IMG/VR virus record: IMGVR_UViG_3300031718_000012
Span: 1 to 60,280 of that record
Length of the DNA stretch: 60,280 nt
Origin: a virus
Taxonomy: Duplodnaviria > Caudoviricetes
Strand: one strand, 5' to 3'
Translations under genes and position numbers: made by a program
Part shown: piece after piece, positions 8,465-53,403 of the stretch
How positions within the stretch are numbered: the first letter of the stretch is position 1
Layout of the letters: each line of letters starts with the position of its first letter
The notes under the pieces: model-generated
The model's input: only the letters and a program-made list of their open reading frames with translations
The model's database searches: none
Told to the model about the DNA's origin: nothing

Positions 8465-10333
8465 CTAGATGTACATCCACGAAGCGGCCTTCACCTTCTT
8501 ATCGCTGCCGTCCTCGATCATGCCAGCCGTACGCAATTCCGAAATGTAATTCTTAAACGAACCCGTCGTAGGCGACACCCCGAGATATTCCCCGATCGAT
8601 TCCCGCGAAACTTCATCGCCCTGGTGTCCGTGAACGAACCGCAGGATCTTCGCCGTCGTGCTGCCGAAAACGTTGGCCGCGCGATTTAGGAGCTCGGCCG
8701 AGTCGGTCACCGGATCTTGCACCGACGGCGCCGCAGACCACCCGGTCGACGTCAGCTTTACTTTTTCTCCCGTTGTTTCGATTAGACCGGCCACGCGCAG
8801 CGCACTCAAATAATTCTTGAAACTTCCGGTACCAGCCTTCACGCCGAGCCAGCCGGCTACTAGCCCTCGACTCGGCTCGGTCACATTGATGCCGGCGAAA
8901 GCGGCGAGCGCCTCGAGGATCCGCTTCTGTGGACCCGTGAGAGAGCCATCGCCTTCGAATTCAATTGGACGTGGTTTGTGCGCTGCCGCTTCCTTCTCAG
9001 GTGAACCGTGCCGCGCAGATGCAATCTCTGCTCCTTTTTTGGATTCCACGCCCAAACCTTTTGCGAGTCCGACGTCGATCGTGATGCTTTCTTTCCTGGT
9101 CGCGGCTTCGATTTTCTCAAGGATCCGCTGCGCATCGCGTTTCAGAACATCCAGCTCGCGCGCCCTGACCGCCAGGCGATCGCCGGCCAGCTTCTTGATG
9201 TCGTGCTTCACCCGCTCGAAAGTTTTGGCCAGGTCATCGTCGGTTAGGCCGGTGGCGTCGAAGTTGATTGCGTTGATGCGTACTATAATTTTCATCGCTT
9301 CCCTCAAAATGTTTGCGAGCGTGCTGATTGCGAGCGCCTTCGCCTTGTCCACTACCAGCGCAGTTGGCGATGTGACGACAGAGGCCTTGGGCTGGGCACG
9401 CAATAGCGACTTCAGCTCGCGGACCTGGCGCTTGAAATCGTCGATCGTTTTTGCTTCTTCTTCGGCTTGCTTCGGAATGTCGCCGAGCTTCACAAGCCAT
9501 TCGCGGACTTTCTCGGTTGGCGGTGGCGGCTTTAATTCGTACTTCCGAGCTTCCTCGCCGTGTGGCGTCTCGATCGTGCCGACGTGCATCAGCTTCAGCT
9601 CGCGCGTGATTGCGCGACCGAGCGCGAAAAAGTATCCCGGCTCGAGCAATTTAATCGTGGCGAAGAATTCGGCTTGCTCTGGTTTCGGGATCCCGAGCTC
9701 ATCGGCTGCGCGCTTTTGGTTTATCGTCTCGAATGTGGGCCCGACCAGGCGATTGAGACACATGCCGGTCAGATCCTTGCTGAGCGTGGCCAGGCGTTGC
9801 GTGGCAAAGACGCCGGCGAGCATGCGTTTGCGGCCGCGCGTTGCGAGTCCTCGCATGGAATCCGCAGCGACCGAATCGCCCTTCCCATGTTCGGGGCAGA
9901 ACATATGCGCCTCGTCGACGATGACCAGGTAGGGGTGCCGCAATTCTTTCGGGGCGTCGATCAGTGCATCAAGGAATCGCTGGACCCACAGGTGCCGCTG
10001 CGATGCCGGCATCTCGTAAATGTCGCAGACGGCAGACGCGCGGCCCTCGAGCAGCGTCCGCGCGAGCTTGTCGGCCGTCCGGATGTCTGCCGGGGTATCG
10101 CCGCCCTTGCCGACCAGGAAGAAATCGAACTGGGTGCGCAGGGGAGCGAATTCACCTTCGGGGTCGATGATTATGATTCCGACCTGGCCGAATGCCTGTT
10201 CGATCAGGCGCTTTAGAAGCCAGGTCTTACCGCCGCCGGAATCCGCGGTGATCAGCAACCGCGTCGACATCAGAAGCTTTAAGTCGACCGAGACGTTACT
10301 GTTTCCGCTTTTTCCCAGAATTGCTTTTTTCAT
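8465..10333 (-). CDS. HerA/FtsK-superfamily (DUF87-like) ATPase with coiled coil and two C-terminal winged-helix-like repeats
   Basis: Walker A ADSGGGKT, IIDPEGEF, Walker B IVDEAH, RGRKR, ATQR; duplicated GSFKNY(L/I)SxLRxAG(L/M)IE. Confidence 0.85.
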   Translation of the reverse strand: MKKAILGKSGNSNVSVDLKLLMSTRLLITADSGGGKTWLLKRLIEQAFGQVGIIIIDPEGEFAPLRTQFDFFLVGKGGDTPADIRTADKLARTLLEGRASAVCDIYEMPASQRHLWVQRFLDALIDAPKELRHPYLVIVDEAHMFCPEHGKGDSVAADSMRGLATRGRKRMLAGVFATQRLATLSKDLTGMCLNRLVGPTFETINQKRAADELGIPKPEQAEFFATIKLLEPGYFFALGRAITRELKLMHVGTIETPHGEEARKYELKPPPPTEKVREWLVKLGDIPKQAEEEAKTIDDFKRQVRELKSLLRAQPKASVVTSPTALVVDKAKALAISTLANILREAMKIIVRINAINFDATGLTDDDLAKTFERVKHDIKKLAGDRLAVRARELDVLKRDAQRILEKIEAATRKESITIDVGLAKGLGVESKKGAEIASARHGSPEKEAAAHKPRPIEFEGDGSLTGPQKRILEALAAFAGINVTEPSRGLVAGWLGVKAGTGSFKNYLSALRVAGLIETTGEKVKLTSTGWSAAPSVQDPVTDSAELLNRAANVFGSTTAKILRFVHGHQGDEVSRESIGEYLGVSPTTGSFKNYISELRTAGMIEDGSDKKVKAASWMYI

Positions 10334-40883: not shown

Positions 40884-42062
40884 TTAGATCTGGTCGAAGT
40901 AGCCGACGGTCTGGGGGTACACGAATTCCATGACGCCCAGGCGGCAGAAATAGGTGGTCTTGTGGTAGATCCCGTCGTACTGAATCGGAGTGCGCTGCAA
41001 CATGGTCATCGGGAAACGGACCTTGTCGTAGGCCTTGGTGTACACGATCATCCGATCGACCGTGTTCAGCGTTCCGATCGTGCCGCCGGCTCCTGCGCCG
41101 ATCGCCCACTTGAGCGGAAGAATTTCGAGCTTCGCGCCGCCGTTCTGCTCGAGCAGGTTGTTGTCTTCGATGTACTTCTTGATCGATACGTTCCCCGCGT
41201 TTGAAACTTTCGCCGTGGAGATGTAGCCGTATTGAACTGGAGGAAGCAGGATCCGGTTCGACATGATGGCGAAGCCCGACGCCGTCCAGACCGAGACGAG
41301 CGCGGTGTTGATGTCGGCCAGAATTTCATCCGGCGATTTGCTGACCCACTGCGTGAAGCCGGCTGCGCCCGCCGGGACGTTGGTCTTCGTCACGTTCGGG
41401 TTGGTGATTAGGCCCTGGTCGCCGGTGGACGTATCGCCGATGTAGACCTGTTCGTCGATGTCCATCTGGTGCTTGAGCGACATGCCCTGGAATTTCTGCA
41501 CGTCGATGGGACGGCCGAGTTTCGCCGCGCTCTCGAGTTCCGGAATCGTGTACTTCAATTCCGTGCCCCAGAGGCGCAAGGGCGAAACGAACTTGCCGAT
41601 GTCGACGCCGATGCCGGTAATTTGCGACGTGTTCTTTCCGATCCACGCCTTACCGTTGCCGATGCCGTTCCCCGCGCCCAGGCCTCCGGACGCGCCGTAG
41701 GTCGAAGCAGTGAAGCTCGACACTTCGTCGGCGAGCGTGACGTCTTCGCGCAAGTCGATGTCGCGGCCCCAGGTGACGGCGGCGAGAGGGTTGTGGAGCG
41801 TCTGATCGAGGCGTTCCAATTCTCCGATCAGGAACGCGCCCGTCGAGTCATAGGTGCGCGTCGACCCCGAAGCGGAATCGTAAACGTCGCACGGGCGACC
41901 GAAGCGCATCCCGGCATGCGTGGGGATATTGTCTCCGCACAGACCGTGGTCCATGACCATGCTCGTCTGGTCGAACGTCATGAGCTGGTCATTGGTCCGA
42001 CGGCGCCCCGCGAATTCTCCGCCACGCACCGGGCGGGAAAACAAGCTCTTGAGTGATCGCAT
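40884..42062 (-). CDS. major capsid protein (DUF2184 / HK97 fold)
   Basis: AFLIGELERLDQ...WGRDIDLRED...YTIPELESA...DEQVYIGD...GVMEFVYP. Confidence 0.9.
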   Translation of the reverse strand: MRSLKSLFSRPVRGGEFAGRRRTNDQLMTFDQTSMVMDHGLCGDNIPTHAGMRFGRPCDVYDSASGSTRTYDSTGAFLIGELERLDQTLHNPLAAVTWGRDIDLREDVTLADEVSSFTASTYGASGGLGAGNGIGNGKAWIGKNTSQITGIGVDIGKFVSPLRLWGTELKYTIPELESAAKLGRPIDVQKFQGMSLKHQMDIDEQVYIGDTSTGDQGLITNPNVTKTNVPAGAAGFTQWVSKSPDEILADINTALVSVWTASGFAIMSNRILLPPVQYGYISTAKVSNAGNVSIKKYIEDNNLLEQNGGAKLEILPLKWAIGAGAGGTIGTLNTVDRMIVYTKAYDKVRFPMTMLQRTPIQYDGIYHKTTYFCRLGVMEFVYPQTVGYFDQI

Positions 42063-42109: not shown

Positions 42110-42757
42110 TTAGAACTTCAGTTCGACGAGGCCATCTGGACCGGCCGGGCCGTTGAAATAAACGCTCGGAACCGGAAGGGCGATGGTCGAACCGCCGGTG
42201 GACGACACTTCGAATCCACCCTGGACGTGCGCGCCGCTCGAGGCCGCAACCCAAACGAAAACCGGAGCGCCTTTGACGATCGCGCCCGTGCCCGATTGCG
42301 CAACGATGACGTAGCCCGACTTCAACACGTCGATGACGCCGGCCGGCGGTACACCCGCGGTTGGTGCGCTGGTCGGACCGGAAATCGCGACGGCGCCGAA
42401 ATTCGAAGTCGAAGACGGCTGAATCGGGAAAGGACGAACCGCGACGCCCGCGATATTCGTCAGGCCGGTGTCGCCCGCGACCATGCCGCGATAGGCGTTC
42501 GGCGTGTTGCCGGTCAGTGAGAAATACACCGCCAGGCCGTAGGCCCCGACCGGGTTCGTCGTGTCCTGCAAGCCCTGCTCAATCCAGAACGGGTGTGATC
42601 GATTGACGTCGCCCTGGAATCCCGTGCCCATCCGGAAACCGAATGACACGCCGTCGTGGGTGCGCCGACGCATGACCAGGAGATTTCCCTTTCGATCGCG
42701 CATGTGCGGCGTCGGGGAGAAGCTGCCAACCAGTGCTCGCATGGTTTCGAATTTCAT
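42110..42757 (-). CDS. capsid decoration/cement protein
   Basis: RMGTGFQGDVNR...GVAVRPFP...DVLKSGYV; between scaffold and capsid genes. Confidence 0.75.
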   Translation of the reverse strand: MKFETMRALVGSFSPTPHMRDRKGNLLVMRRRTHDGVSFGFRMGTGFQGDVNRSHPFWIEQGLQDTTNPVGAYGLAVYFSLTGNTPNAYRGMVAGDTGLTNIAGVAVRPFPIQPSSTSNFGAVAISGPTSAPTAGVPPAGVIDVLKSGYVIVAQSGTGAIVKGAPVFVWVAASSGAHVQGGFEVSSTGGSTIALPVPSVYFNGPAGPDGLVELKF

Positions 42758-42800: not shown

Positions 42801-42830
42801 TGCCGTTCAGTTGAATTCAACTTAACGGGC
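42801..42830. repeat. 30-bp palindrome, copy 2 of 3
   Basis: TGCCGTTCAGTTGAATTCAACTTAACGGGC. Confidence 0.65.
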
Positions 42831-44249
42831 GTTTTGGCGATTCCAGAATTCCGCGTTCGCCTTGTTCACATCCGTGATCGAGCGGATCTTGCCCTTGCCG
42901 GAATCGGCCGTTGCGGCTGCGCCGTTCGCGCGAGCCGGCTGCGCTTGGTTAGCAACTTTCTTCGCCGCGCCCACCGCGTTGAATAGCGTGCGCGTTTCGT
43001 GGCTCGACAGTTTCTCGATACCATCGGCGGTAATTTCGCGGCCGCGAATGGCCCACGTGAGCTGGCACGTTGCCGCATCGAGCAATCCGAGTTTCAGCGC
43101 GCGCTTGCGCAGACCGGTGACGGCTTTCAGCGTGACCGTCGGCTTGGCTTTTGAATCGAACGTTGCGAGCTGCACGCCAGGGGCGATGATTTCGGCTGTC
43201 GCGAGCGTCTGTTGGAACGAACCTTCGAGGACCGCGGAGTCGCCGGTGAGCGAGATGGCCGAGTCGCCGGTTCCCGGCGGCACTTCCTCGGACATTTCGT
43301 CCTTGGCTTCTTTTTCCTCTTTTTCCTTTTCCGCTTCGGCGTCCTTCGAGGCTTTGTCCTCGGACTCGGTCTTGCCTTTCTTGAGTTCCTCGATCGAGTC
43401 CATGACTTTCTTGAACGAGTCGTCGATTTTCTTTTCCATCTCGCCGAACTTGCCCTCGATCGCGGCGTCGTTCCACTTGGGAGCGCCATCACCCGGGGCC
43501 GTCGACGTTCCGGCTTTGCCCGGTTCGCCGCCGATATGGAAGTGCTGTTCGACCTTGTGACCTTCATCCGCGGAGTCGTACGTCATGGCCGTCGCTTCCG
43601 TCGGAGCTGCGGCCAGAATCGCGTCGATGTTTTTCTTGGCATCGCCGGTCAGCTTGGAAGCGGCGCAGCGCAGGGATTCCAGAAAGTTTTTCTTGGACAT
43701 TTCGTTTCCTCCGAATTTTTCATCGCCGACACGACACGTTGAACCGCATCGCGCCATATCGACCAGCGCCACATGGTTCACGATGATATTTTTCTGATAA
43801 CCGCGCCCCGGCTCCGTCTGGAAATAGTCGCAGTCGTATCCGCAGGACAGCTCGACCTTGCCCCCGTCGATTTCTTCGATCGCATCGGCATCCATGACCA
43901 CGACATCAGCGACCAGGTAATCCGAGAGGTCGCCTTTGCCCCGGCGAGGATCCAGCACGATTCCGATCGCCAATTCCTTGAAATTGGTGGGATCCACTGG
44001 GTGGTGGAAACTGATCAGCGGCTTTGCGTTCGCGCTCGCAATCGTTTCCGGCCGGAACACTTCATCTTCGTGGCGCTCGATCGTGACCAGGCCGCGTTCG
44101 TCGCCCTTGAGGTGAACTTCGGCTTCGGTGTAAATCTGCTCGCCGATGCGCGCGATCGGTGATTCGGGGAAAACGTAGAAACCCTCGGGCGTCTTCCACT
44201 TTTTCGCCGAGAGCTTTTCGGTTGTGTAGAACCGCATCGCCACGCGCAT
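42822..44249 (-). CDS. DUF2213 prohead protease-scaffold
   Basis: TPEGF...PIARIGEQIY...ELSCGYD...NHVALVDMARCG, then acidic scaffold region. Confidence 0.9.
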   Translation of the reverse strand: MRVAMRFYTTEKLSAKKWKTPEGFYVFPESPIARIGEQIYTEAEVHLKGDERGLVTIERHEDEVFRPETIASANAKPLISFHHPVDPTNFKELAIGIVLDPRRGKGDLSDYLVADVVVMDADAIEEIDGGKVELSCGYDCDYFQTEPGRGYQKNIIVNHVALVDMARCGSTCRVGDEKFGGNEMSKKNFLESLRCAASKLTGDAKKNIDAILAAAPTEATAMTYDSADEGHKVEQHFHIGGEPGKAGTSTAPGDGAPKWNDAAIEGKFGEMEKKIDDSFKKVMDSIEELKKGKTESEDKASKDAEAEKEKEEKEAKDEMSEEVPPGTGDSAISLTGDSAVLEGSFQQTLATAEIIAPGVQLATFDSKAKPTVTLKAVTGLRKRALKLGLLDAATCQLTWAIRGREITADGIEKLSSHETRTLFNAVGAAKKVANQAQPARANGAAATADSGKGKIRSITDVNKANAEFWNRQNAR

Positions 44250-44868: not shown

Positions 44869-45463
44869 TCAGTCCCCATACTGGAGAACAAAGGCCGCGT
44901 TGTACAGGATTAAATTATTCGCGTTGTCGAATTGCGGCAAGGCGTTCGGAAAAGTAAATAGCACCGTCGTGCCGTTGAGCTGCACCGTGACGTTCGCTAG
45001 GTCGCCGACGATGCCCTCGCCCGTGATGGCTGGATCCACGATTCCGGTGGGAAGGTTCCCGCGAAAATCTTCGCTGACTGGGGCCACGCTGCAATCGATC
45101 GAAAGCGTGGTTGATTCACCGTCGGAATTAAAGGGAACGTTGTATTGCTTTCCGGGCGTGTTCACACTCTGGAATCTAAGTACGATCTGCGGAATTGTCA
45201 ACTGCGGTTGTCGAATCCGCTATCTGGTAAAACTCGAATTTAATATTTTTTATCTTGGTAGAAATCCAGTCGTACATCTCGGGGGCCCCTACAACAGAAA
45301 CTCTTTGCCTAAGAATATCCGTCTGACGTTTAGTCAGGCGGATTCGGCATATGCCGTCGGTTGAGCAACAGATTTTGCGCAAATCTTCAAATATTTCCGA
45401 GGGGGTCTTTCGGTCCCACTTAGCTGAGCCAGCAGCGCCGATGATGCTAATTTCCACCTTCAT
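44869..45463 (-). other. two small hypothetical genes (44869-45201, 45176-45463)
   Basis: Operon-oriented ORFs between head morphogenesis and 44851. Confidence 0.5.
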
Positions 45464-46254
45464 CGAATCACATCCGGAATAATCGGCTCCGCGTAGCAGC
45501 GACAATTCGGGCCTTGGCCTGGGTGGTATCGCATCCCATCGGTCCCGGCGACCGGCGGATTTTTCCACGCGAAAGTTTTCCCATCGAGCTTCCGATGCTC
45601 GGCGCGCACATCCGAATCGTGAACCGTGTGCCAGACGTAATGCGTTGAGCCGATATATCGCGCGCGCGATTCCTGCAGGAGAGCCGCGGTCCGCGAAGTC
45701 TCGGTGCGTGCAATCAGTTTCGCGCGGCCGATTGTTACCTGGCCCGACTTCATGATTTCTTTTTCGATTTCCGAAGCGCGCGTGGAATTCATCAAGCCTT
45801 CGGTCGTGAGTTTGTGGATCCTCTGCGCGGCTTCGGTGGGCAGCGAAGTAATCAGGTGAACCTGTTCGGACAGCGCCGTGCGGAACAATTCGCCCGTCGG
45901 TGCGGTGCGTAACTCTTTGCGCAACGACCGCGCCATTTCCTTCGACAGTTCGGTCCAGGTCCCGAGGTCGCGCTTCTTGACTTGCTCGTGCATACGCTCG
46001 GTGACTGCGCGCGCCCAGGGCCGGATCAGCTCGGCATATCGGTTGAGCATCGTGGTTAGCTCCGACACGTTCTTGACTTTCCCGCCGGGAGCCATGCCGT
46101 CGACGAGCGTTCCAACTTTTTTGGCGACGGCGACGAGCTGGCGCTGGAATGATTTTTCAGCGGCGCGCGCGCGGGTGAATTGCTGCTCGGCGATTCGCCG
46201 GCGTTGAAGCGGGGTGAGTTTCTTCGGCTTAGGCGTTGGCTTTTTTGGCGGCAT
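45460..46254 (-). CDS. head morphogenesis protein (Mu gpF / SPP1 gp7 family)
   Basis: RAKLIARTET...YVWHTVHDSDVRAEH...HPGQGPNCRC. Confidence 0.9.
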   Translation of the reverse strand: MPPKKPTPKPKKLTPLQRRRIAEQQFTRARAAEKSFQRQLVAVAKKVGTLVDGMAPGGKVKNVSELTTMLNRYAELIRPWARAVTERMHEQVKKRDLGTWTELSKEMARSLRKELRTAPTGELFRTALSEQVHLITSLPTEAAQRIHKLTTEGLMNSTRASEIEKEIMKSGQVTIGRAKLIARTETSRTAALLQESRARYIGSTHYVWHTVHDSDVRAEHRKLDGKTFAWKNPPVAGTDGMRYHPGQGPNCRCYAEPIIPDVIR

Positions 46255-46519
46255 TGTTTTTCCGGAACATTTTTTCGTCGGGGCAATCGGCGAAATGCGG
46301 TTGATACTTCGGGCCGCATGGCGCGACCGGCGCCGTCGCAAATAATTTCCCGGCGGTGGTTTCTGGAATCGTGATTACGCGCGACATCGGAATCTTCGCG
46401 CCGCCTGGCGTCTTGAACCAGAACACGCGCGATCGACAATGCGGTCCAGTGCATGCCGCATCGTTGGTAAAAATAAATCCCTCGGCCTTGAGCTGCTCGT
46501 GAGTGGCGGGGTATTTCAT
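46229..46519 (-). CDS. zinc-ribbon phage protein
   Basis: CTGPHC...WFKTPGGAKIPM...HFADCP; GAGG RBS. Confidence 0.7.
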   Translation of the reverse strand: MKYPATHEQLKAEGFIFTNDAACTGPHCRSRVFWFKTPGGAKIPMSRVITIPETTAGKLFATAPVAPCGPKYQPHFADCPDEKMFRKNNAAKKANA

Positions 46520-46856
46520 TTGTTCCTCTCGAACGTGACTTTACCGATAGCCTGGTCGCGCGCAACGGCGTCCAGGTCCGCGGACGAAGGCAGCCCGCCG
46601 CGACCGTGATGCGCGGGGCACTCGGCGACGCGGTCTGCCGAACAGTGCACGTTACGACAACGCCACAGGTGCTCGCCCGTTTTGCACCAGTGCTCTTTTC
46701 CGTCGTTTGTCTCGACCATGCTTCCTCCCGTGGCCTTCGCCACTATGGTTCTTCCAGAACCACGCCTCCATGTCGAGCGCGAATGACGCGGTTGCGACGT
46801 CACGGTCATGTGGGCTCCGCAGATACAATTGCAGACGATCGGTGAAAATACCTGCT

Positions 46857-47222
46857 TCATTTGTGGCCTCGCTTTGCTTTTGGTTGCGGCTTCGCGAGAA
46901 ACCACTTGTTGGTGTTCGGCTCGAATTTATAACCGCGCGCCTTCATGAACGCCAGCCCTCCGGTCTTTGAACCTTCCGTCGTGATGACGCGGCCATATGC
47001 CCGCAGCAGTCCAGCATTGAGCGCGCTGCGCACTCCTTGCCTTCGCGCCCATGGCAGCGTATAGCTTCCCCACACGTCGAAACAATTCTTGCCGTTGGTA
47101 ACTCCCCAAACGAATCCGAGTGGGCTGGGGAACGCGCGATTGAACAGAGCGTAAAAAGCTACGCCGAAGCCGAGAGCTTGCATGTCTATCCAATCTTTCG
47201 AGTGGTCGATTTTTATTTTCAT
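46857..47222 (-). CDS. GNAT-like acetyltransferase
   Basis: YTLPWARRQGVRSAL acetyl-CoA loop; GLAFMKARGY. Confidence 0.6.
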   Translation of the reverse strand: MKIKIDHSKDWIDMQALGFGVAFYALFNRAFPSPLGFVWGVTNGKNCFDVWGSYTLPWARRQGVRSALNAGLLRAYGRVITTEGSKTGGLAFMKARGYKFEPNTNKWFLAKPQPKAKRGHK

Positions 47223-47361
47223 GCGCGTTCCTTGATGCGCCTGGCTACCGCAGCTTTCTGTTTCTCGATCGTCTTGCGCTTCGATTCGTCCGAAGGCTCG
47301 ACGGTGATTTTTGGCCCGAGCGATTTTGCGTCGGCGACTTTCTGGAATTGGATTTTGAAGG

Positions 47362-47685
47362 TCACCGGTCGAATCCTCGCGATTTCAAATCGCTCAATAG
47401 GCTCAGAAGTACTTCGTGCATGATGGCGTAATCGTGTGGCGTAAGTTTTCGATCGCCAAGCGCAATTTGGGCCGTGTTCGTACTCGCCAGCCATTCCTCG
47501 ACAACCGCGACTGCTTCCTTCGCTGACGGCGCCGGGATCACAACAGTATCCGCTTCCTGCCTTTCTATTTCGTCGAGGATCCGGCGAGCGCGAAATACGG
47601 CGTTGTATTCGTCGAGGCCTATCGCGCCATGAATCCCCGCAGCCATGTGCGCCAGAAGCTTTTTACGTTCCGAAAACTGACTCAC
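47362..47685 (-). CDS. hypothetical protein
   Basis: GAGGA RBS; start overlaps the initiator stop. Confidence 0.6.
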   Translation of the reverse strand: MSQFSERKKLLAHMAAGIHGAIGLDEYNAVFRARRILDEIERQEADTVVIPAPSAKEAVAVVEEWLASTNTAQIALGDRKLTPHDYAIMHEVLLSLLSDLKSRGFDR

Positions 47686-48383
47686 TGAGTCCTCACGATT
47701 TTCGCGTCGTAACCGCGACGCTTGAAAAATTCCACCCAGTCATCGGCGCGCGACCCGACCATGGTTTCGGCTTCGGTCTGCGTCCAGAGGCGTTTCAGTT
47801 TTGAGGGGTATACGACTTTGATCTGCTCCCCACCACAGAACACGATTTCGGTTTTGGTTCGAAGGCGAACGGAAGGCGAATGGTTCCCCCCACCGTTTTT
47901 GTGGGGGGTAGGGGGGGCATTTGACTTTCCCTCCCCACCCATACCAAACCCAACCAAACCTAGGTAGGACTGTCCTAGGACAACAGTCGGATCGGCGGTT
48001 CGATGCATGTATTCCCTAAGTCCTTTCGCTGGAGGCTCTGGGCCGCGTTCCATCCGCTCGCGCTGAGTTGGCGGCGGAAGCCTTCCGGTCTTGTCAATTC
48101 CGACCCAAAAGCCCCATTCCTTCGCCGCACGTTCGCTCCACCTGAACAGCAAACCGACCCGCTCGAACTCTCCTAGGATTGTCCTAGCCATGTCACAGGA
48201 TATGTCGGGGCGGTTGTATGAATAGACCTTCGTCCAGACTAAAAAGGGGTCACATTCGAAGACTCCGTTGGCCAGGGCGAGTGGGATGAGATTGGCGTAT
48301 TCGGGGCGAAAAGTGAGCGGCATCACCGCTCGAATTCTATTTGAAGTCCAGACTGCGTCACCGTCAACGATGCGCTTTGGCAT
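47682..48383 (-). CDS. putative phage replication initiator (winged-helix type)
   Basis: MPKRIVDGDAVWTS...LIPLALANG...LGEFERVGLL N-domain and GLVGFGMGGEG..PPTP linker typical of lambda-O-like/replisome organisers. Confidence 0.65.
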   Translation of the reverse strand: MPKRIVDGDAVWTSNRIRAVMPLTFRPEYANLIPLALANGVFECDPFLVWTKVYSYNRPDISCDMARTILGEFERVGLLFRWSERAAKEWGFWVGIDKTGRLPPPTQRERMERGPEPPAKGLREYMHRTADPTVVLGQSYLGLVGFGMGGEGKSNAPPTPHKNGGGNHSPSVRLRTKTEIVFCGGEQIKVVYPSKLKRLWTQTEAETMVGSRADDWVEFFKRRGYDAKIVRTQ

Positions 48384-48494
48384 CAGTTCATTGTCCTTGT
48401 TTCGCCGGATGAAAAGCCCTCGCGTGCAGTTGTGGGCCATCCGGCGAAGGAAGGTTTACCACTGGACCACACGCGAGAGCAAAACCGCTCGGGG

Positions 48495-48523
48495 AATATA
48501 GTACTAGGTAGCCCCTAGGTCAA
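48495..48523 (-). promoter_or_regulatory. sigma70-type promoter of the initiator operon
   Basis: TTGACC-17-TATATT with CTAGG-N5-CCTAG in the spacer. Confidence 0.75.
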
Positions 48524-48590
48524 GTGTTCTGATACACTTTCCACAATGTTTTCCACCGGCCAGGCTTGAACGCCTAGATGTCACCCACAC

Positions 48591-48794
48591 TCAGGCCTCG
48601 CCGGCCCTTTCCGCTTCGATTATTTTTTCTCGGATTTGTTCGCGGGATTCTTCGACTTCGATTTCATTTCCATCGAGAAGGTGAATCACGCCGCCGTCGA
48701 CGTCGGAATGGTATCGCGCGATGTTCTCGGCGACCACGTCGTTCTCGACAATCTTTTTATTCTCGACGAATTGTCGGACTGTGATGAGTGTCAT
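48591..48794 (-). CDS. small FlbD-like protein
   Basis: AENIARY...VIHLLDGNEIEVEESREQIREKI. Confidence 0.55.
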   Translation of the reverse strand: MTLITVRQFVENKKIVENDVVAENIARYHSDVDGGVIHLLDGNEIEVEESREQIREKIIEAERAGEA

Positions 48795-49126
48795 GGTGTT
48801 ATCGCTCCGTTTGTCACATGGCCATGCCAAGCGCAGCCAGAATCGAGAAGAATCGAAGGCGTGAGCGTCAGATCCTCGTACGATGTCCCTGATGCACCCC
48901 AGCGCGTTGGCTTTCCATCTTTTCCATGTGAACCTTGGGCCGGCAGAACGCCGCGACCGGAGAATGAAACCTCGACCATGTGTGTTCCTACTGGGCCTTT
49001 ATTTTTCTCGAAGCACAGCGGACACAAAAACCAAATTCCCTGGGCACTGGAAAAGCTTTCACCGTGACGCGTTATCCTATCGCCTTCGTACTTGACGAAG
49101 CTCGGCTCCAAGCCAATTAGCCTCAC
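48791..49126 (-). CDS. DUF6527-like zinc-binding protein
   Basis: WFLCPLC...H...WG...DLTLTPSIL...CAWHGHVTNG. Confidence 0.7.
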   Translation of the reverse strand: MRLIGLEPSFVKYEGDRITRHGESFSSAQGIWFLCPLCFEKNKGPVGTHMVEVSFSGRGVLPAQGSHGKDGKPTRWGASGTSYEDLTLTPSILLDSGCAWHGHVTNGAITP

Positions 49127-49311
49127 CGGGGATTGGCCAGCACGAATTTTTGAAGTTCTTCGTAAAGCGGATCGTCACACAGCGCGAGGTTGAGCGGCTT
49201 GTCAAAATCTTTCTGTTCGATCGTCACCAGGTCTATTCGAACTCGCACCGCTTGCAGCTTGCCTGGGTTTATTTTGCTGTTGAAGTCGATGAAATACTCT
49301 CCCACTTTCAT
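49123..49311 (-). CDS. small hypothetical protein
   Basis: Start overlaps the portal stop region; GGGGG RBS. Confidence 0.55.
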   Translation of the reverse strand: MKVGEYFIDFNSKINPGKLQAVRVRIDLVTIEQKDFDKPLNLALCDDPLYEELQKFVLANPR

Positions 49312-51050
49312 AGTGCCCCCATTATTTTTTTGAGGAAGAAGTCGCAGCCGCCCTCGGCCGCGATCGGACCGCGCACAATCTGGCAAAGTTCCGGTGACTG
49401 AAACCGCGCGCAAATCCCGCAATGATTTTCGCCCTTGCGCTCCGCATGGTATCCCGCCTGCTTCTGCGTTAACTTCGCGGACTCATCGCAATCGTTCGTC
49501 GTGCGTCGATCGCCAGCGCGCTTCGGACTAGGCGATTCTTCGCCTTCCTCGACTTTCGATTTCGTGGATCCTTCGCCCGCGCCGCTACCCGCGCCGACAT
49601 CCGGACCTTCGGGAACTGGCGGCCGCGGAGTGTCATCGGCGGCTTCGATTTCGTCGTCTGTGATGTTCGTCCAGACACCAGTCTTGACGGACGATTCTTT
49701 CAGCTCCTTCAACCCCACCTGGTCGCTGATCAATCCGGAGCTCACGGCCGACATTACCGTTTCGGTTACGCTCTTGGCCAGGTCGCCCTTTTCGGTTTCA
49801 GTCATTTGCCACAGCGGATTGAACGTCAGTCCGAAACCTTTCGGCACCTTGATACCGTTGGATTGCGCGATACAACGATATGCGATCGTAAGCGGCCCGA
49901 GCAGGTGACGGTTCTGCTGCTGATTGATGCCGTCGTAATAAGTGCGCAAATCACTCTCGCCCGTCGAATTCAGGCCGCCTGGGGACTGGCCGAACAGGCG
50001 CGTCATCGGAACCTGAAGCGCACCCGAGATTTGCATGGCGAATTGCAACAGCGCCTCGTTCAATCCCGAGAACGGCGGTGCCGCCATCGTCTCCATTTCG
50101 TCGCCCATGTCCAGGAGCGTGATGCCCTCGTTCGACTGCGTCTGCCGCATGAACTGCACGGTCTTCACCAGACCTTCGAACATTTTTCCGCCGCCGGCGA
50201 CGGTAGTTCGGAAGTCCTTGAGCTTGTAAGTGCGCAGGTAAGATTTGTAGACCAGCTGAGCGGCGCCGGTGGTGGCCGAGTCGAACGCGATCATGCGATC
50301 GTACATTCGCTCGAGGACCGACAGGCCCCACAGATTTTCCTGCAGCCGCTGTTGCCAGGGCAGCCGAATTCCTTCGAGGCGCATGATGCGCGAGTAGTGA
50401 ATCTTCTGGCCGTACAGCATCGGCGCGTCTTGCGTGACCGTGTAGAACTTCGGCAGGCCCATGTGCGGGCCCCATTCGGTGACCAGGTCGCTGAGCGAAC
50501 ATTCCACCTGCCAGCGATCGAGCGAATAGATTCCCTTGAACTGGTTCTGGCCGACCGTCTCGATTCGGAATGGCGTCGAAAGTTTTTGCCCATCGATCAG
50601 CAGCACGCCAATGCAGCCGCCGTACAGCCGCGACCACTTGATCACGTCGTTCACGCCGTTCCACACGCCGAGCATCCCGGCCTGTTCCTCGATCGCCGCG
50701 GAGTCATCCGGATCGATATCGCCCTTCATGGTGACGCCGGCGCGCGTCATGTCATCGGCGACCAGGTCGATCGCTACGCCGCCAATCCAGGTTCCCCGGT
50801 GGATCCACTCGAGCAGCGTGCGAATGCGCGTGATGGGATTGAAACCGTAAGTCGTGGCCGAGCTGAGATTGGAAGTGCCGATGCCCAGGCCTGCGGCAAA
50901 GTTTTGGAGCGAGTCGGACGTCTTGGCCAGTGACGCGACGGCGGGCGTATCGAACTTCCCGAGAACGCGCGCACGCGCCAGGGCATCATTTGCCTTGGCT
51001 TGCTTGGCGAAATCGCGGACGCTGCGCTTCTCTGGCGGTTTATTCTTCAT
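49308..51050 (-). CDS. portal protein (DUF1073 family) with C-terminal HiPIP-like domain
   Basis: AIDLVADDMTRAG...WSRLYGG...IHYSR...WGLSVLE...PMTRLFGQSPGGLNSTGESDLRTYYD...FNPLWQ. Confidence 0.9.
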   Translation of the reverse strand: MKNKPPEKRSVRDFAKQAKANDALARARVLGKFDTPAVASLAKTSDSLQNFAAGLGIGTSNLSSATTYGFNPITRIRTLLEWIHRGTWIGGVAIDLVADDMTRAGVTMKGDIDPDDSAAIEEQAGMLGVWNGVNDVIKWSRLYGGCIGVLLIDGQKLSTPFRIETVGQNQFKGIYSLDRWQVECSLSDLVTEWGPHMGLPKFYTVTQDAPMLYGQKIHYSRIMRLEGIRLPWQQRLQENLWGLSVLERMYDRMIAFDSATTGAAQLVYKSYLRTYKLKDFRTTVAGGGKMFEGLVKTVQFMRQTQSNEGITLLDMGDEMETMAAPPFSGLNEALLQFAMQISGALQVPMTRLFGQSPGGLNSTGESDLRTYYDGINQQQNRHLLGPLTIAYRCIAQSNGIKVPKGFGLTFNPLWQMTETEKGDLAKSVTETVMSAVSSGLISDQVGLKELKESSVKTGVWTNITDDEIEAADDTPRPPVPEGPDVGAGSGAGEGSTKSKVEEGEESPSPKRAGDRRTTNDCDESAKLTQKQAGYHAERKGENHCGICARFQSPELCQIVRGPIAAEGGCDFFLKKIMGAL

Positions 51051-51268: not shown

Positions 51269-51808
51269 TTACTTCTTGGGGTTTCGACAATCCTCGGAAA
51301 TGAAGATCCTGCCGTTGACGGGCGGATAAATTGTTAGGACGTATCCCGCTTTCAGCAATCTGTCGAGAGTTTCCGGGGGCACCGACTTCGACGGCTTTCC
51401 TGAGACTGTGCCGTCCGAATATGTGTCGTAGAGGTAACCGCCGGTCGAGCCTGTGCATGTGCTGGACGCAACCGGGTCGCCCGATACGATTTGGATATCG
51501 GCGATCTTGGGAAAGTTGTCATCCTTCGGAGATTGTGCAGCGGCCTTGTTCACGTTGGCACAAGCGGACGCGACGAACGATTCGGCATCAGCCAAGTTCG
51601 TGAGCGTCGAAGATTTGTTGCAGCCGTTCGCCACATAGCCGATGCCGGGGATATTCTTGACCGTGCCGAGAATCGGTCCCACCGACAAAACGTACTGCCA
51701 TTCGTTCGCTGTCGTTTGGATCCAAACCGGAGTGCCCGGGACTTTGCCAGCGCAGCCGAACAAAATGACCACCAACATTACCCAGGTGAATCTCAGAAAG
51801 TTTCGCAT
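51269..51808 (-). CDS. putative lipoprotein
   Basis: MRNFLRFTWVMLVVILFG-C; GGAGG RBS. Confidence 0.65.
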   Translation of the reverse strand: MRNFLRFTWVMLVVILFGCAGKVPGTPVWIQTTANEWQYVLSVGPILGTVKNIPGIGYVANGCNKSSTLTNLADAESFVASACANVNKAAAQSPKDDNFPKIADIQIVSGDPVASSTCTGSTGGYLYDTYSDGTVSGKPSKSVPPETLDRLLKAGYVLTIYPPVNGRIFISEDCRNPKK

Positions 51809-53329: not shown

Positions 53330-53403
53330 TGGAGCCCCAGGTGAGAATCGAACTCACGTTTGCTGATTACGAATCAACCGCTCTACCACTGAGCTACCGG
53401 GGC
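53330..53403 (-). tRNA. tRNA-Thr(CGT)
   Basis: GCCCCGGTAGCTCAGTGGTAGAGCGGTTGATTCGTAATCAGCAAACGTGAGTTCGATTCTCACCTGGGGCTCCA; full 74-nt cloverleaf with encoded CCA. Confidence 0.95.

Follow-up and report, generated by a model that had tools for sequence, protein, structure and literature searches.

A HiPIP-fold module at the C-terminus of a phage portal protein: a candidate cargo of the viral head

High-potential iron-sulfur proteins (HiPIPs) are periplasmic electron carriers. What might a domain resembling them be doing at the end of a protein of the phage head? The question is raised by the IMG/VR virus record IMGVR_UViG_3300031718_000012, the whole of which was analysed here (the window, a complete linear record of 60,280 bp; CheckV 100%). 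It derives from a myovirus-like phage with contractile-tail genes for a sheath, a baseplate wedge and a tape-measure/lysozyme protein, and a sequence-only reading of it had proposed that the portal protein ends in a HiPIP-like [4Fe-4S] domain, preceded by a candidate protease site and carried into the head. Profile searches, structure prediction and comparison with other viral contigs bear on each of these proposals. Judging from the sequence and the structural model, the terminal module genuinely belongs to the HiPIP superfamily.

The portal protein itself is readily recognized by the Pfam Phage_portal_3 model (PF06381; E 3.4e-92, residues 84-432) and the NCBIfam model TIGR01555 (E 2.3e-65), and it retrieves from the PDB the portals of the cyanophage Pam3 (8hds; E 6.8e-34), E217 (8fvh) and Pa193 (9b41), with these matches covering residues 43-501. 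In an AlphaFold model of the full-length protein the confidently modelled core extends to about residue 480, blocks 80-480 mostly having predicted local distance difference test (pLDDT) values of 70-97, and the linker region falls below 50 at residues 483-527. The module that follows is internal to the portal protein and carries no signal peptide or twin-arginine translocation (Tat) leader. The portal tail had been quoted exactly in the sequence-only reading, and the protein extends eight residues further (LKKIMGAL); of the two ends of the span assigned to the domain, base 49308 is the start of the portal stop-codon span and base 49510 lies within residue 514, directly before the motif RRTTND.

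A phmmer search of the PDB with the 74-residue tail recovered a single protein, PioC (6xyv, a HiPIP of 54 residues; E 3.7e-7 over 50 residues), and the NCBIfam Iro 'iron oxidase' model NF041615 matched residues 21-69 of the same query (E 6.6e-8). An HMMER pass over 1.84 billion representative proteins returned 210 sequences at E<=1e-3, none of them below 1e-10. When the query was aligned with 103 small matches, nine columns of the 104-sequence alignment were near-invariant (a Tyr, four Cys, a Phe, a Pro, a Val and a Gly), and the query keeps all nine, the non-Cys residues being Y28, F44, P47, V53 and G55 of the 74-residue numbering. In the portal, the predicted [4Fe-4S] ligands are Cys544, Cys547, Cys556 and Cys569, spaced CxxC-x8-C-x12-C as in PioC and in 62 of 62 Tat-bearing homologues, with the conserved Tyr534 about 10 residues before the first Cys. 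The sole clear departure is Gly568, at the position before the fourth Cys where most HiPIPs have Trp; the short-HiPIP signature read from the DNA, with this one substitution, is borne out and the substitution is real. Trp precedes the last Cys in 54/62 Tat-bearing forms versus 48/105 viral forms, and the module of L134, a contig syntenic with the window, also ends in Gly-Gly-Cys; the loss of Trp is thus a trait of the lineage and not decay.

Structure prediction for the isolated tail, based on the 104-sequence alignment, gave a HiPIP fold (pLDDT 83.5 overall and 89-95 over residues 21-70), as the sequence-only reading had supposed. A Foldseek search of the PDB with this model produced 22 matches at E<=10, with HiPIPs occupying ranks 1-18; the best partners were 1isu (root-mean-square deviation 1.4 A over 55 columns) and PioC (TM 0.78). 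Against 48,161 representative chains, VIA-align reported ten at Z>=2, namely seven HiPIPs (Z 5.0-7.1) and three HiPIP-like iron-sulfur (Fe-S) small subunits of glycyl-radical enzymes (Z 2.3-3.1), so that no protein other than [4Fe-4S] proteins appears at this threshold. The outcome that was to refute the sequence-only reading, a lack of HMM and structure matches, did not arise, even though the Pfam HIPIP model is silent on this sequence.

Several results pull in the other direction. The best Foldseek E-value is only 2.3e-3, a weakness attributable to the small size of the domain, and all VIA-align scores stay under Z 8, middling on the tool's own scale. The full-length portal model leaves the module unfolded (pLDDT <50, residues 538-580), the domain being present in only 2 of the 30 rows of the alignment behind that model. 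The Iro match scores 32.8 bits, whereas the equivalog cutoff of that model is 100. The Pfam HIPIP model (PF01355), by which the sequence-only reading had hoped to see the domain recognized, did not match the tail even at E<=10; it matches 53 of the 104 aligned sequences at E<=0.01, which makes the link to the query transitive only. Finally, the change of Trp to Gly means that cluster shielding may differ, or that some viral forms may bind another metal. A PHROGs search with the tail and seven standalone homologues gave 0 families, and a word-indexed protein search returned only the query or nothing, which reflects the limits of the index and not rarity. The module is neither an Iro/PioC equivalog nor a periplasmic carrier.

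The module proved to be anything but confined to this portal. We scanned IMG/VR contigs with a degenerate DNA pattern for C-x2-C-x2-F-x2-P-x2-C-x2-V-x-G-x-I-x5-C, which fixes the F, P, V, G and I and therefore undercounts variants. At least 120 stretches match, and among the matches listed all 120 are in frame with an upstream Lys-rich/Tyr segment; sorted by the length of the open reading frame (ORF), 59 of these fall in the class of up to 130 amino acids (aa), 46 in that of 400 aa or more, and 15 in between (131-399 aa). Among the same listed matches, the small ORFs (54 distinct ones) all lack a hydrophobic leader, and their first Cys stands at a median position of 27. Fifty distinct long ORFs among those listed were compared with Pfam. 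Portals account for ten (PF04860 Phage_portal in six, and the P22, SU10, Mu and SPP1 types in one each), other matches to proteases and head proteins being Peptidase_S78 (6), S78_2 (2), DUF2213 (5), Phage_capsid (3) and Mu_F (4), and the remaining named domains NUDIX (6), InPase (4), ART-PolyVal (1), C39-like peptidase (2) and ChaB (2). Where the order was checked, the module is C-terminal to the portal core in 7/7 portals, and N-terminal in 4/4 protease proteins, of which two are fused to a capsid protein, and in 2/2 MuF proteins. One ORF in each of L050 and L073 reads as a HiPIP-like module, then an S78 prohead protease, then an HK97-type capsid domain.

Other collections agree with this distribution. 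Long matches in the representative protein library combine HiPIP with InPase, HiPIP with DUF2213, NUDIX with HiPIP and DUF2213, and ART-PolyVal with HiPIP and InPase. The flanks of 58 standalone module genes (82 ORFs) include seven portals, five capsid proteins, four large terminases (TerL) and one S78 protease, most of the flanking ORFs having no Pfam name. In BFVD the fold occurs within uncultured-phage proteins automatically named Zeta-toxin-domain, XkdF, ParB/Sulfiredoxin, HAD-like, helicase, SppA and prohead protease; in the ESM Atlas the closest clusters consist of viral 'hypothetical proteins', with 15-36% of members matching HIPIP (a lead only), and two viral proteins already carry a HiPIP-profile tag in their UniProt automatic names. 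Among GenBank phages (50,697 records) the sole match is a 67-aa 'hypothetical protein' of Synechococcus phage S-SRM01, and it is weak (E 4e-3). Tandem HiPIP-like modules were seen in single small proteins (P0003, P0008, P0018, P0046, P0064, P0072, P0075, P0099, P0104 and P0151), some with a Tat-like leader and some without.

On a tree of the Tat-bearing and IMG/VR forms, which is poorly resolved (52 columns), five label changes suffice, whereas 200 shuffles needed 50.2 on average and never fewer than 43, and the query falls among viral and signal-less rows; since kin share labels, the tree shows clustering and not direction. From these comparisons we conclude that the module belongs to a large, signal-less and almost purely viral branch of HiPIPs. 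To go by the domain architectures, head-interior proteins of several kinds serve phages interchangeably as carriers of this branch, which follows portals and precedes prohead proteases or MuF proteins, and which phages also join with enzymes carried in virions, such as NUDIX, InPase, ART and ParB/Srx-like domains. The occurrence of a signal-less HiPIP branch on head-interior proteins of more than 100 uncultured phages suggests that a redox cofactor has a so far overlooked task, either while the capsid is assembled or during the first minutes of infection.

What occupies the equivalent position in related portals? We collected the first 12 portal relatives and the portals adjoining capsid relatives (80 loci of 310 confirmed capsid relatives). 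The resulting 28 distinct tails, assigned to classes by eye from their motifs, comprise 17 bare acidic/Pro tails, five Nudix-like, four InPase-like, one ART-like and one HiPIP tail, that of L134. Across 12 portal-related and 109 capsid-related loci, the HiPIP domain was found in L134 only. This independent contig carries an equivalent portal-HiPIP fusion, and is 54% identical to the window in the portal, 61% in MuF, 46% in DUF2213 and 69% in the capsid protein. PF06381 portals with cargo behind a similar linker were seen at L150, L158, L161, L146, L157, L162, L192, L208, L177 and L200, and at L002/L003, L008 and L009/L010; by eye, the kinds of cargo on related PF06381 portals are Nudix-like, InPase-like, ART-like and ParB-like (DGHHR). 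As relatives have other cargo or none at the equivalent position, the position looks like a swappable cargo slot and not a part of the packaging machine. On this comparative sequence evidence, the portal C-terminus in this phage group appears to serve as a cargo slot.

The sequence-only reading had likened the RRTTND before the domain to candidate protease sites in the capsid proteins, and the likeness stands. In a six-frame translation of the window, RR[RT]T[NH]D occurs three times versus 0.04 expected from 200 mononucleotide shuffles: in the portal (context AGDRRTTND/CDES, the slash following the Asp) and where the leaders end in the major capsid protein and in the decoration protein (Table 1). 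Most capsid proteins of relatives have a short leader ending in [RK]x[KR]T[RHN]D before MTFD, a few starting directly at M-x-T-F-D, and decoration proteins of relatives have leaders with a like ending before V-A-F-x-F-R-M-G. A script recognized leader plus motif in 35 of the 66 distinct rows for the capsid protein and in 42 of the 61 for the decoration protein, and missed further obvious cases that it sorted under 'other' or 'core not found'. The absence of leaders is paired, in that several phages without one also lack the other (among them L192/L195, L196 and L208). The endings themselves also go together within a phage: FVGRQRTRD occurs in both the capsid and decoration proteins of L188, and VGHRRTHD closes the leader of the capsid protein in both L139 and L143, and in L143 that of the decoration protein as well. 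Over the last six residues, leaders of the same phage share 4.56 identical residues versus 3.48 for shuffled partners, 0 of 2000 shuffles reaching the observed value, a figure that comes from 18 pairs caught by a strict regular expression and is inflated by relatedness. As leaders are kept in the relatives, release by a maturation protease is plausible. A basic-x-D element also stands just before the cargo in 5 of 5 Nudix-like portals, with the junctions KKRTRD (L161), RKRMRD, RAMRARD, KTKTTKD and GPARD.

The pattern fits a single processing activity with cleavage on the C-terminal side of Asp, by which the leaders and the portal cargo alike would be released. If so, the shared leader motif would be a rule for the release of portal-fused cargo, one that would cover the Nudix-like and InPase-like cargo of relatives as well. 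The only candidate for the activity is the DUF2213 protein, labelled 'head maturation protease' by PHROGs, the protease activity being a label only. Against cleavage stand the following points. The motif pattern was written after the sites were seen. The junction in L134, the closest relative, offers only ATGD (its leaders end RFRAND and RMKAND), and a search of the L002-L008 portals for the strict motif gave no match. In the PDB the DUF2213 protein matches 9b40_G, the 'scaffolding protein' gp24 of Pa193 (E 1.9e-4), which is described as a putative scaffolding protein, the word 'protease' not occurring in that paper (PMC11456595). Decoration proteins of the PF23982 family lie on the capsid exterior in XM1 (PMC10457771), so that action of an internal protease on the decoration leader is not straightforward. 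A PDB search gave no match for the decoration protein, and the sole match for the capsid protein was to Pam3, beginning at residue 133; solved structures therefore cannot place the leader ends. Among the papers that a search for DUF2213 listed, none dealt with cleavage specificity. We regard the case for cleavage of the module from the portal at RRTTND as evenly poised on the sequence patterns. The earlier supposition that the domain is possibly cleaved off has thus gained a motif common to the capsid and decoration leaders, and is weakened by L134 and L002-L008.

How, then, might the module be used? Portal C-termini, whether crown or barrel, point into the head in solved portals. In the Pa193 portal the C-terminal barrel is inside the head (PMC11456595). 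With the C-terminus inside, a dodecamer would bring as many as 12 modules within the capsid. It seems moderately likely that the portal acts as a carrier that brings the HiPIP domain into the head behind the PF06381 core and a floppy linker, the domain then probably being clipped free; each module would probably hold one [4Fe-4S] cluster. Carriage into the head on the portal, as first proposed, has gained comparative support from the presence of the module on portals, proteases and MuF proteins and of other cargo on related portals. In this scheme the module would be clipped after RRTTND by the activity that also removes the capsid and decoration leaders, and the free unit of about 60 aa would be able to leave with the DNA. 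In the HiPIP fold the cluster is buried and tolerates oxygen, so that the fold would be suited to an Fe-S cofactor that has to survive in a free virion. Ejection followed by an early redox or effector role is a tentative suggestion, to which we give somewhat less than an even chance; the anti-defence role raised in the sequence-only reading is likewise tentative. The sequence-only reading had also considered an iron cargo; this does not hold up, as 12 clusters amount to only 48 Fe atoms per virion, a negligible supply, and such a role is unlikely.

A broader form of this idea would be that many tailed-phage lineages pack an oxygen-tolerant [4Fe-4S] HiPIP in the head by joining it to a portal, protease or MuF protein, use the maturation protease to cut it free, and inject it along with the DNA as a redox effector or sensor in the cell. 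Such a HiPIP could, for instance, change the redox state of a host defence enzyme of the Fe-S or radical-SAM type, or could switch on co-packaged NUDIX, InPase or ParB/Srx-like enzymes on meeting the reducing cytoplasm. We hold this generalization to be doubtful; if true, it would provide the first redox-active internal head protein.

The alternatives differ in whether the module leaves the portal, whether it holds a cluster, and whether it has a job in the phage at all. It might stay attached as a permanent appendage of the portal crown for assembly or for DNA packaging and retention, or as a knob contacting DNA or scaffold. The unclear junction of L134 would fit this, as would the location of the C-terminal barrels inside the head in solved portals of the family (Pa193; PMC11456595), and the glycyl-radical-enzyme small subunits provide a precedent for the HiPIP fold as a structural Fe-S subunit. 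However, 17 of 28 related portal tails do without cargo while others carry Nudix-, InPase- or ART-like enzymes, the module also sits on proteases and MuF proteins or stands alone, and RRTTND resembles the end of the capsid leader, all of which makes an appendage unlikely, although worth keeping in mind. That the module holds a cluster is quite probable: we predict that it binds [4Fe-4S] via Cys544, Cys547, Cys556 and Cys569. The contrary view is that it is a HiPIP-derived structural mini-domain devoid of redox chemistry, whose four Cys bind Zn or nothing. Four-Cys sites can indeed bind Zn, the shielding Trp is lost in the query and in 57 of 105 viral forms, and Pfam HIPIP misses the query. Yet throughout the viral branch the ligand spacing is unchanged, as are the Tyr and the Phe/Pro/Val/Gly core, which in HiPIPs encloses the cubane, every VIA-align match at Z>=2 is a [4Fe-4S] protein, and the close superposition of the model on a holo HiPIP suggests a cluster-sized cavity, so that we find a Zn-binding or metal-free module rather improbable.

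The fusion could also be an accident, with a host electron-carrier gene caught by chance as an auxiliary metabolic gene, or joined through an assembly error, and acting as a periplasmic HiPIP if functional at all. Its closest characterised relatives are indeed periplasmic HiPIPs. It nevertheless lacks a signal peptide and lies in frame behind a portal, an equivalent fusion is found in an independent syntenic contig, there are at least 120 viral occurrences, mostly in head proteins, and the viral branch lies apart from the Tat-bearing forms; chance capture is accordingly a most improbable explanation.

Table 1. Features of the portal locus and other genes of the window; a slash in a motif context follows the Asp of the motif
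Feature	Position	Strand	Basis or remark
Portal gene	49308..51050	minus	uninterrupted ORF, 580 aa plus stop
PF06381-matched portal core	49755..50801	minus	residues 84-432
Flexible acidic/Gly/Pro/Ser linker, ~35 residues (about 481-514)	49509..49610	minus	sequence; low pLDDT
RRTTND, residues 515-520, candidate maturation-cleavage/processing motif at linker/cargo boundary	49491..49508	minus	motif match
HiPIP-fold module, residues 521-580 (55-60 aa)	49311..49490	minus	sequence and model
Major capsid protein gene	40884-42062	minus	PF09950 E 5.5e-76
RRRTND, residues 20-25, leader end of major capsid protein	41988..42005	minus	AGRRRTND/QLMTFD, just before conserved MTFD
Decoration/minor capsid protein gene	42110-42757	minus	PF23982 XM1_gp53_minor_capsid E 8.9e-13, profile starts residue 38
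RRRTHD, residues 30-35, leader end of decoration protein	42653..42670	minus	VMRRRTHD/GVSFGFRMG
DUF2213 protein, 475 aa, candidate head-maturation protease/scaffold	42822..44249	minus	PF09979 E 3.3e-43, residues 19-177
MuF-like head morphogenesis protein, same head module as portal	45460..46341	minus	phrog_324 E 1.3e-65
Portal-MuF gap	46229-49311	minus	~3 kb of small ORFs
Cys-rich ORFs in portal-MuF gap	46229-46519 and 46516-46905
DUF6527 protein in portal-MuF gap	48791-49126		E 9.3e-6
Gap ORFs with homologue in L134	47219-47494 and 47682-48440		only these two
179-aa ORF directly upstream of portal	51269-51808	minus	lipoprotein-like start (Cys after a hydrophobic stretch); no PHROG match
tRNA-Thr, anticodon CGT	53330-53403	minus	sole tRNA in record
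530-aa protein	33567-35159	minus	tape-measure-like N-terminal and endolysin/lysozyme-like C-terminal part (phrog_2276, phrog_7)
Terminase-like match, the only one	8465-10333	minus	phrog_2666 E 5.5e-15, residues 24-218 vs C-terminal part of profile

Downstream of the portal lie the genes for the MuF-like, DUF2213, XM1-gp53-type decoration and major capsid proteins. The TGA stop of the portal overlaps the ATG of the next ORF, of 62 aa, as ATGA, and a run of seven A residues is seen near this stop. The terminase-like gene is about 39 kb from the portal, and none was seen adjoining it. Relatives of the capsid protein are scattered over Burkholderiales, Binatia, Acidobacteriota and other genomes at 44-66% identity, too widely for a host to be named.

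The systems that most resemble this one are found in quite different settings. The module is like PioC of Rhodopseudomonas palustris TIE-1 (6xyv) and other short HiPIPs (the Iro type, 1isu, 3h31) in its fold, its Cys spacing, its Tyr and its Phe/Pro/Val/Gly core. It differs from them in lacking a Tat signal, in being C-terminal in a portal, made in the cytoplasm and bound for a capsid, and in having Gly for Trp. The small subunits of glycyl-radical enzymes (benzylsuccinate synthase, 4pkf_B and 9pzj; 2y8n_B) are likewise cytoplasmic, of HiPIP-type fold and part of a larger assembly, but the structural match to them is weak (Z 2.3-3.1) and the context unrelated. [4Fe-4S] clusters are known in siphophage tail-tip proteins of the lambda gpL type; these too place an Fe-S cluster in an extracellular virion, but differ in protein, fold and place, the tail tip as against the head interior. 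The internal proteins and Alt of T4 are packaged in the head, cut by the prohead protease gp21 and injected with the DNA. The logic proposed here is alike, with delivery in the prohead, release by a protease at a motif shared with the capsid protein and exit with the DNA, but targeting would be via covalent fusion to the portal instead of a capsid-targeting peptide, and the putative P1 residue is Asp.

In having a cargo domain joined through a linker to a protein of the virion, the portal also resembles the phage polyvalent proteins and the portal- and MuF-fused effectors, for which Iyer et al. 2017 (PMC5512222) describe fusions of portals with InPase, PBECR and 2H domains. As in the polyvalent proteins, the module co-occurs with NUDIX, InPase and ART-PolyVal domains; unlike their cargo, it is without a known enzymatic activity. 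The main text of that paper does not contain the terms iron-sulfur, Fe-S, 4Fe-4S, high-potential or cysteine (PMC5512222), and our literature searches, judged from listed titles and abstract openings, gave no report of a HiPIP on a phage portal or capsid protein, or of Fe-S in head or injected proteins. Portal-fused cargo is of a known kind, and the HiPIP is a known fold in an unexpected place.

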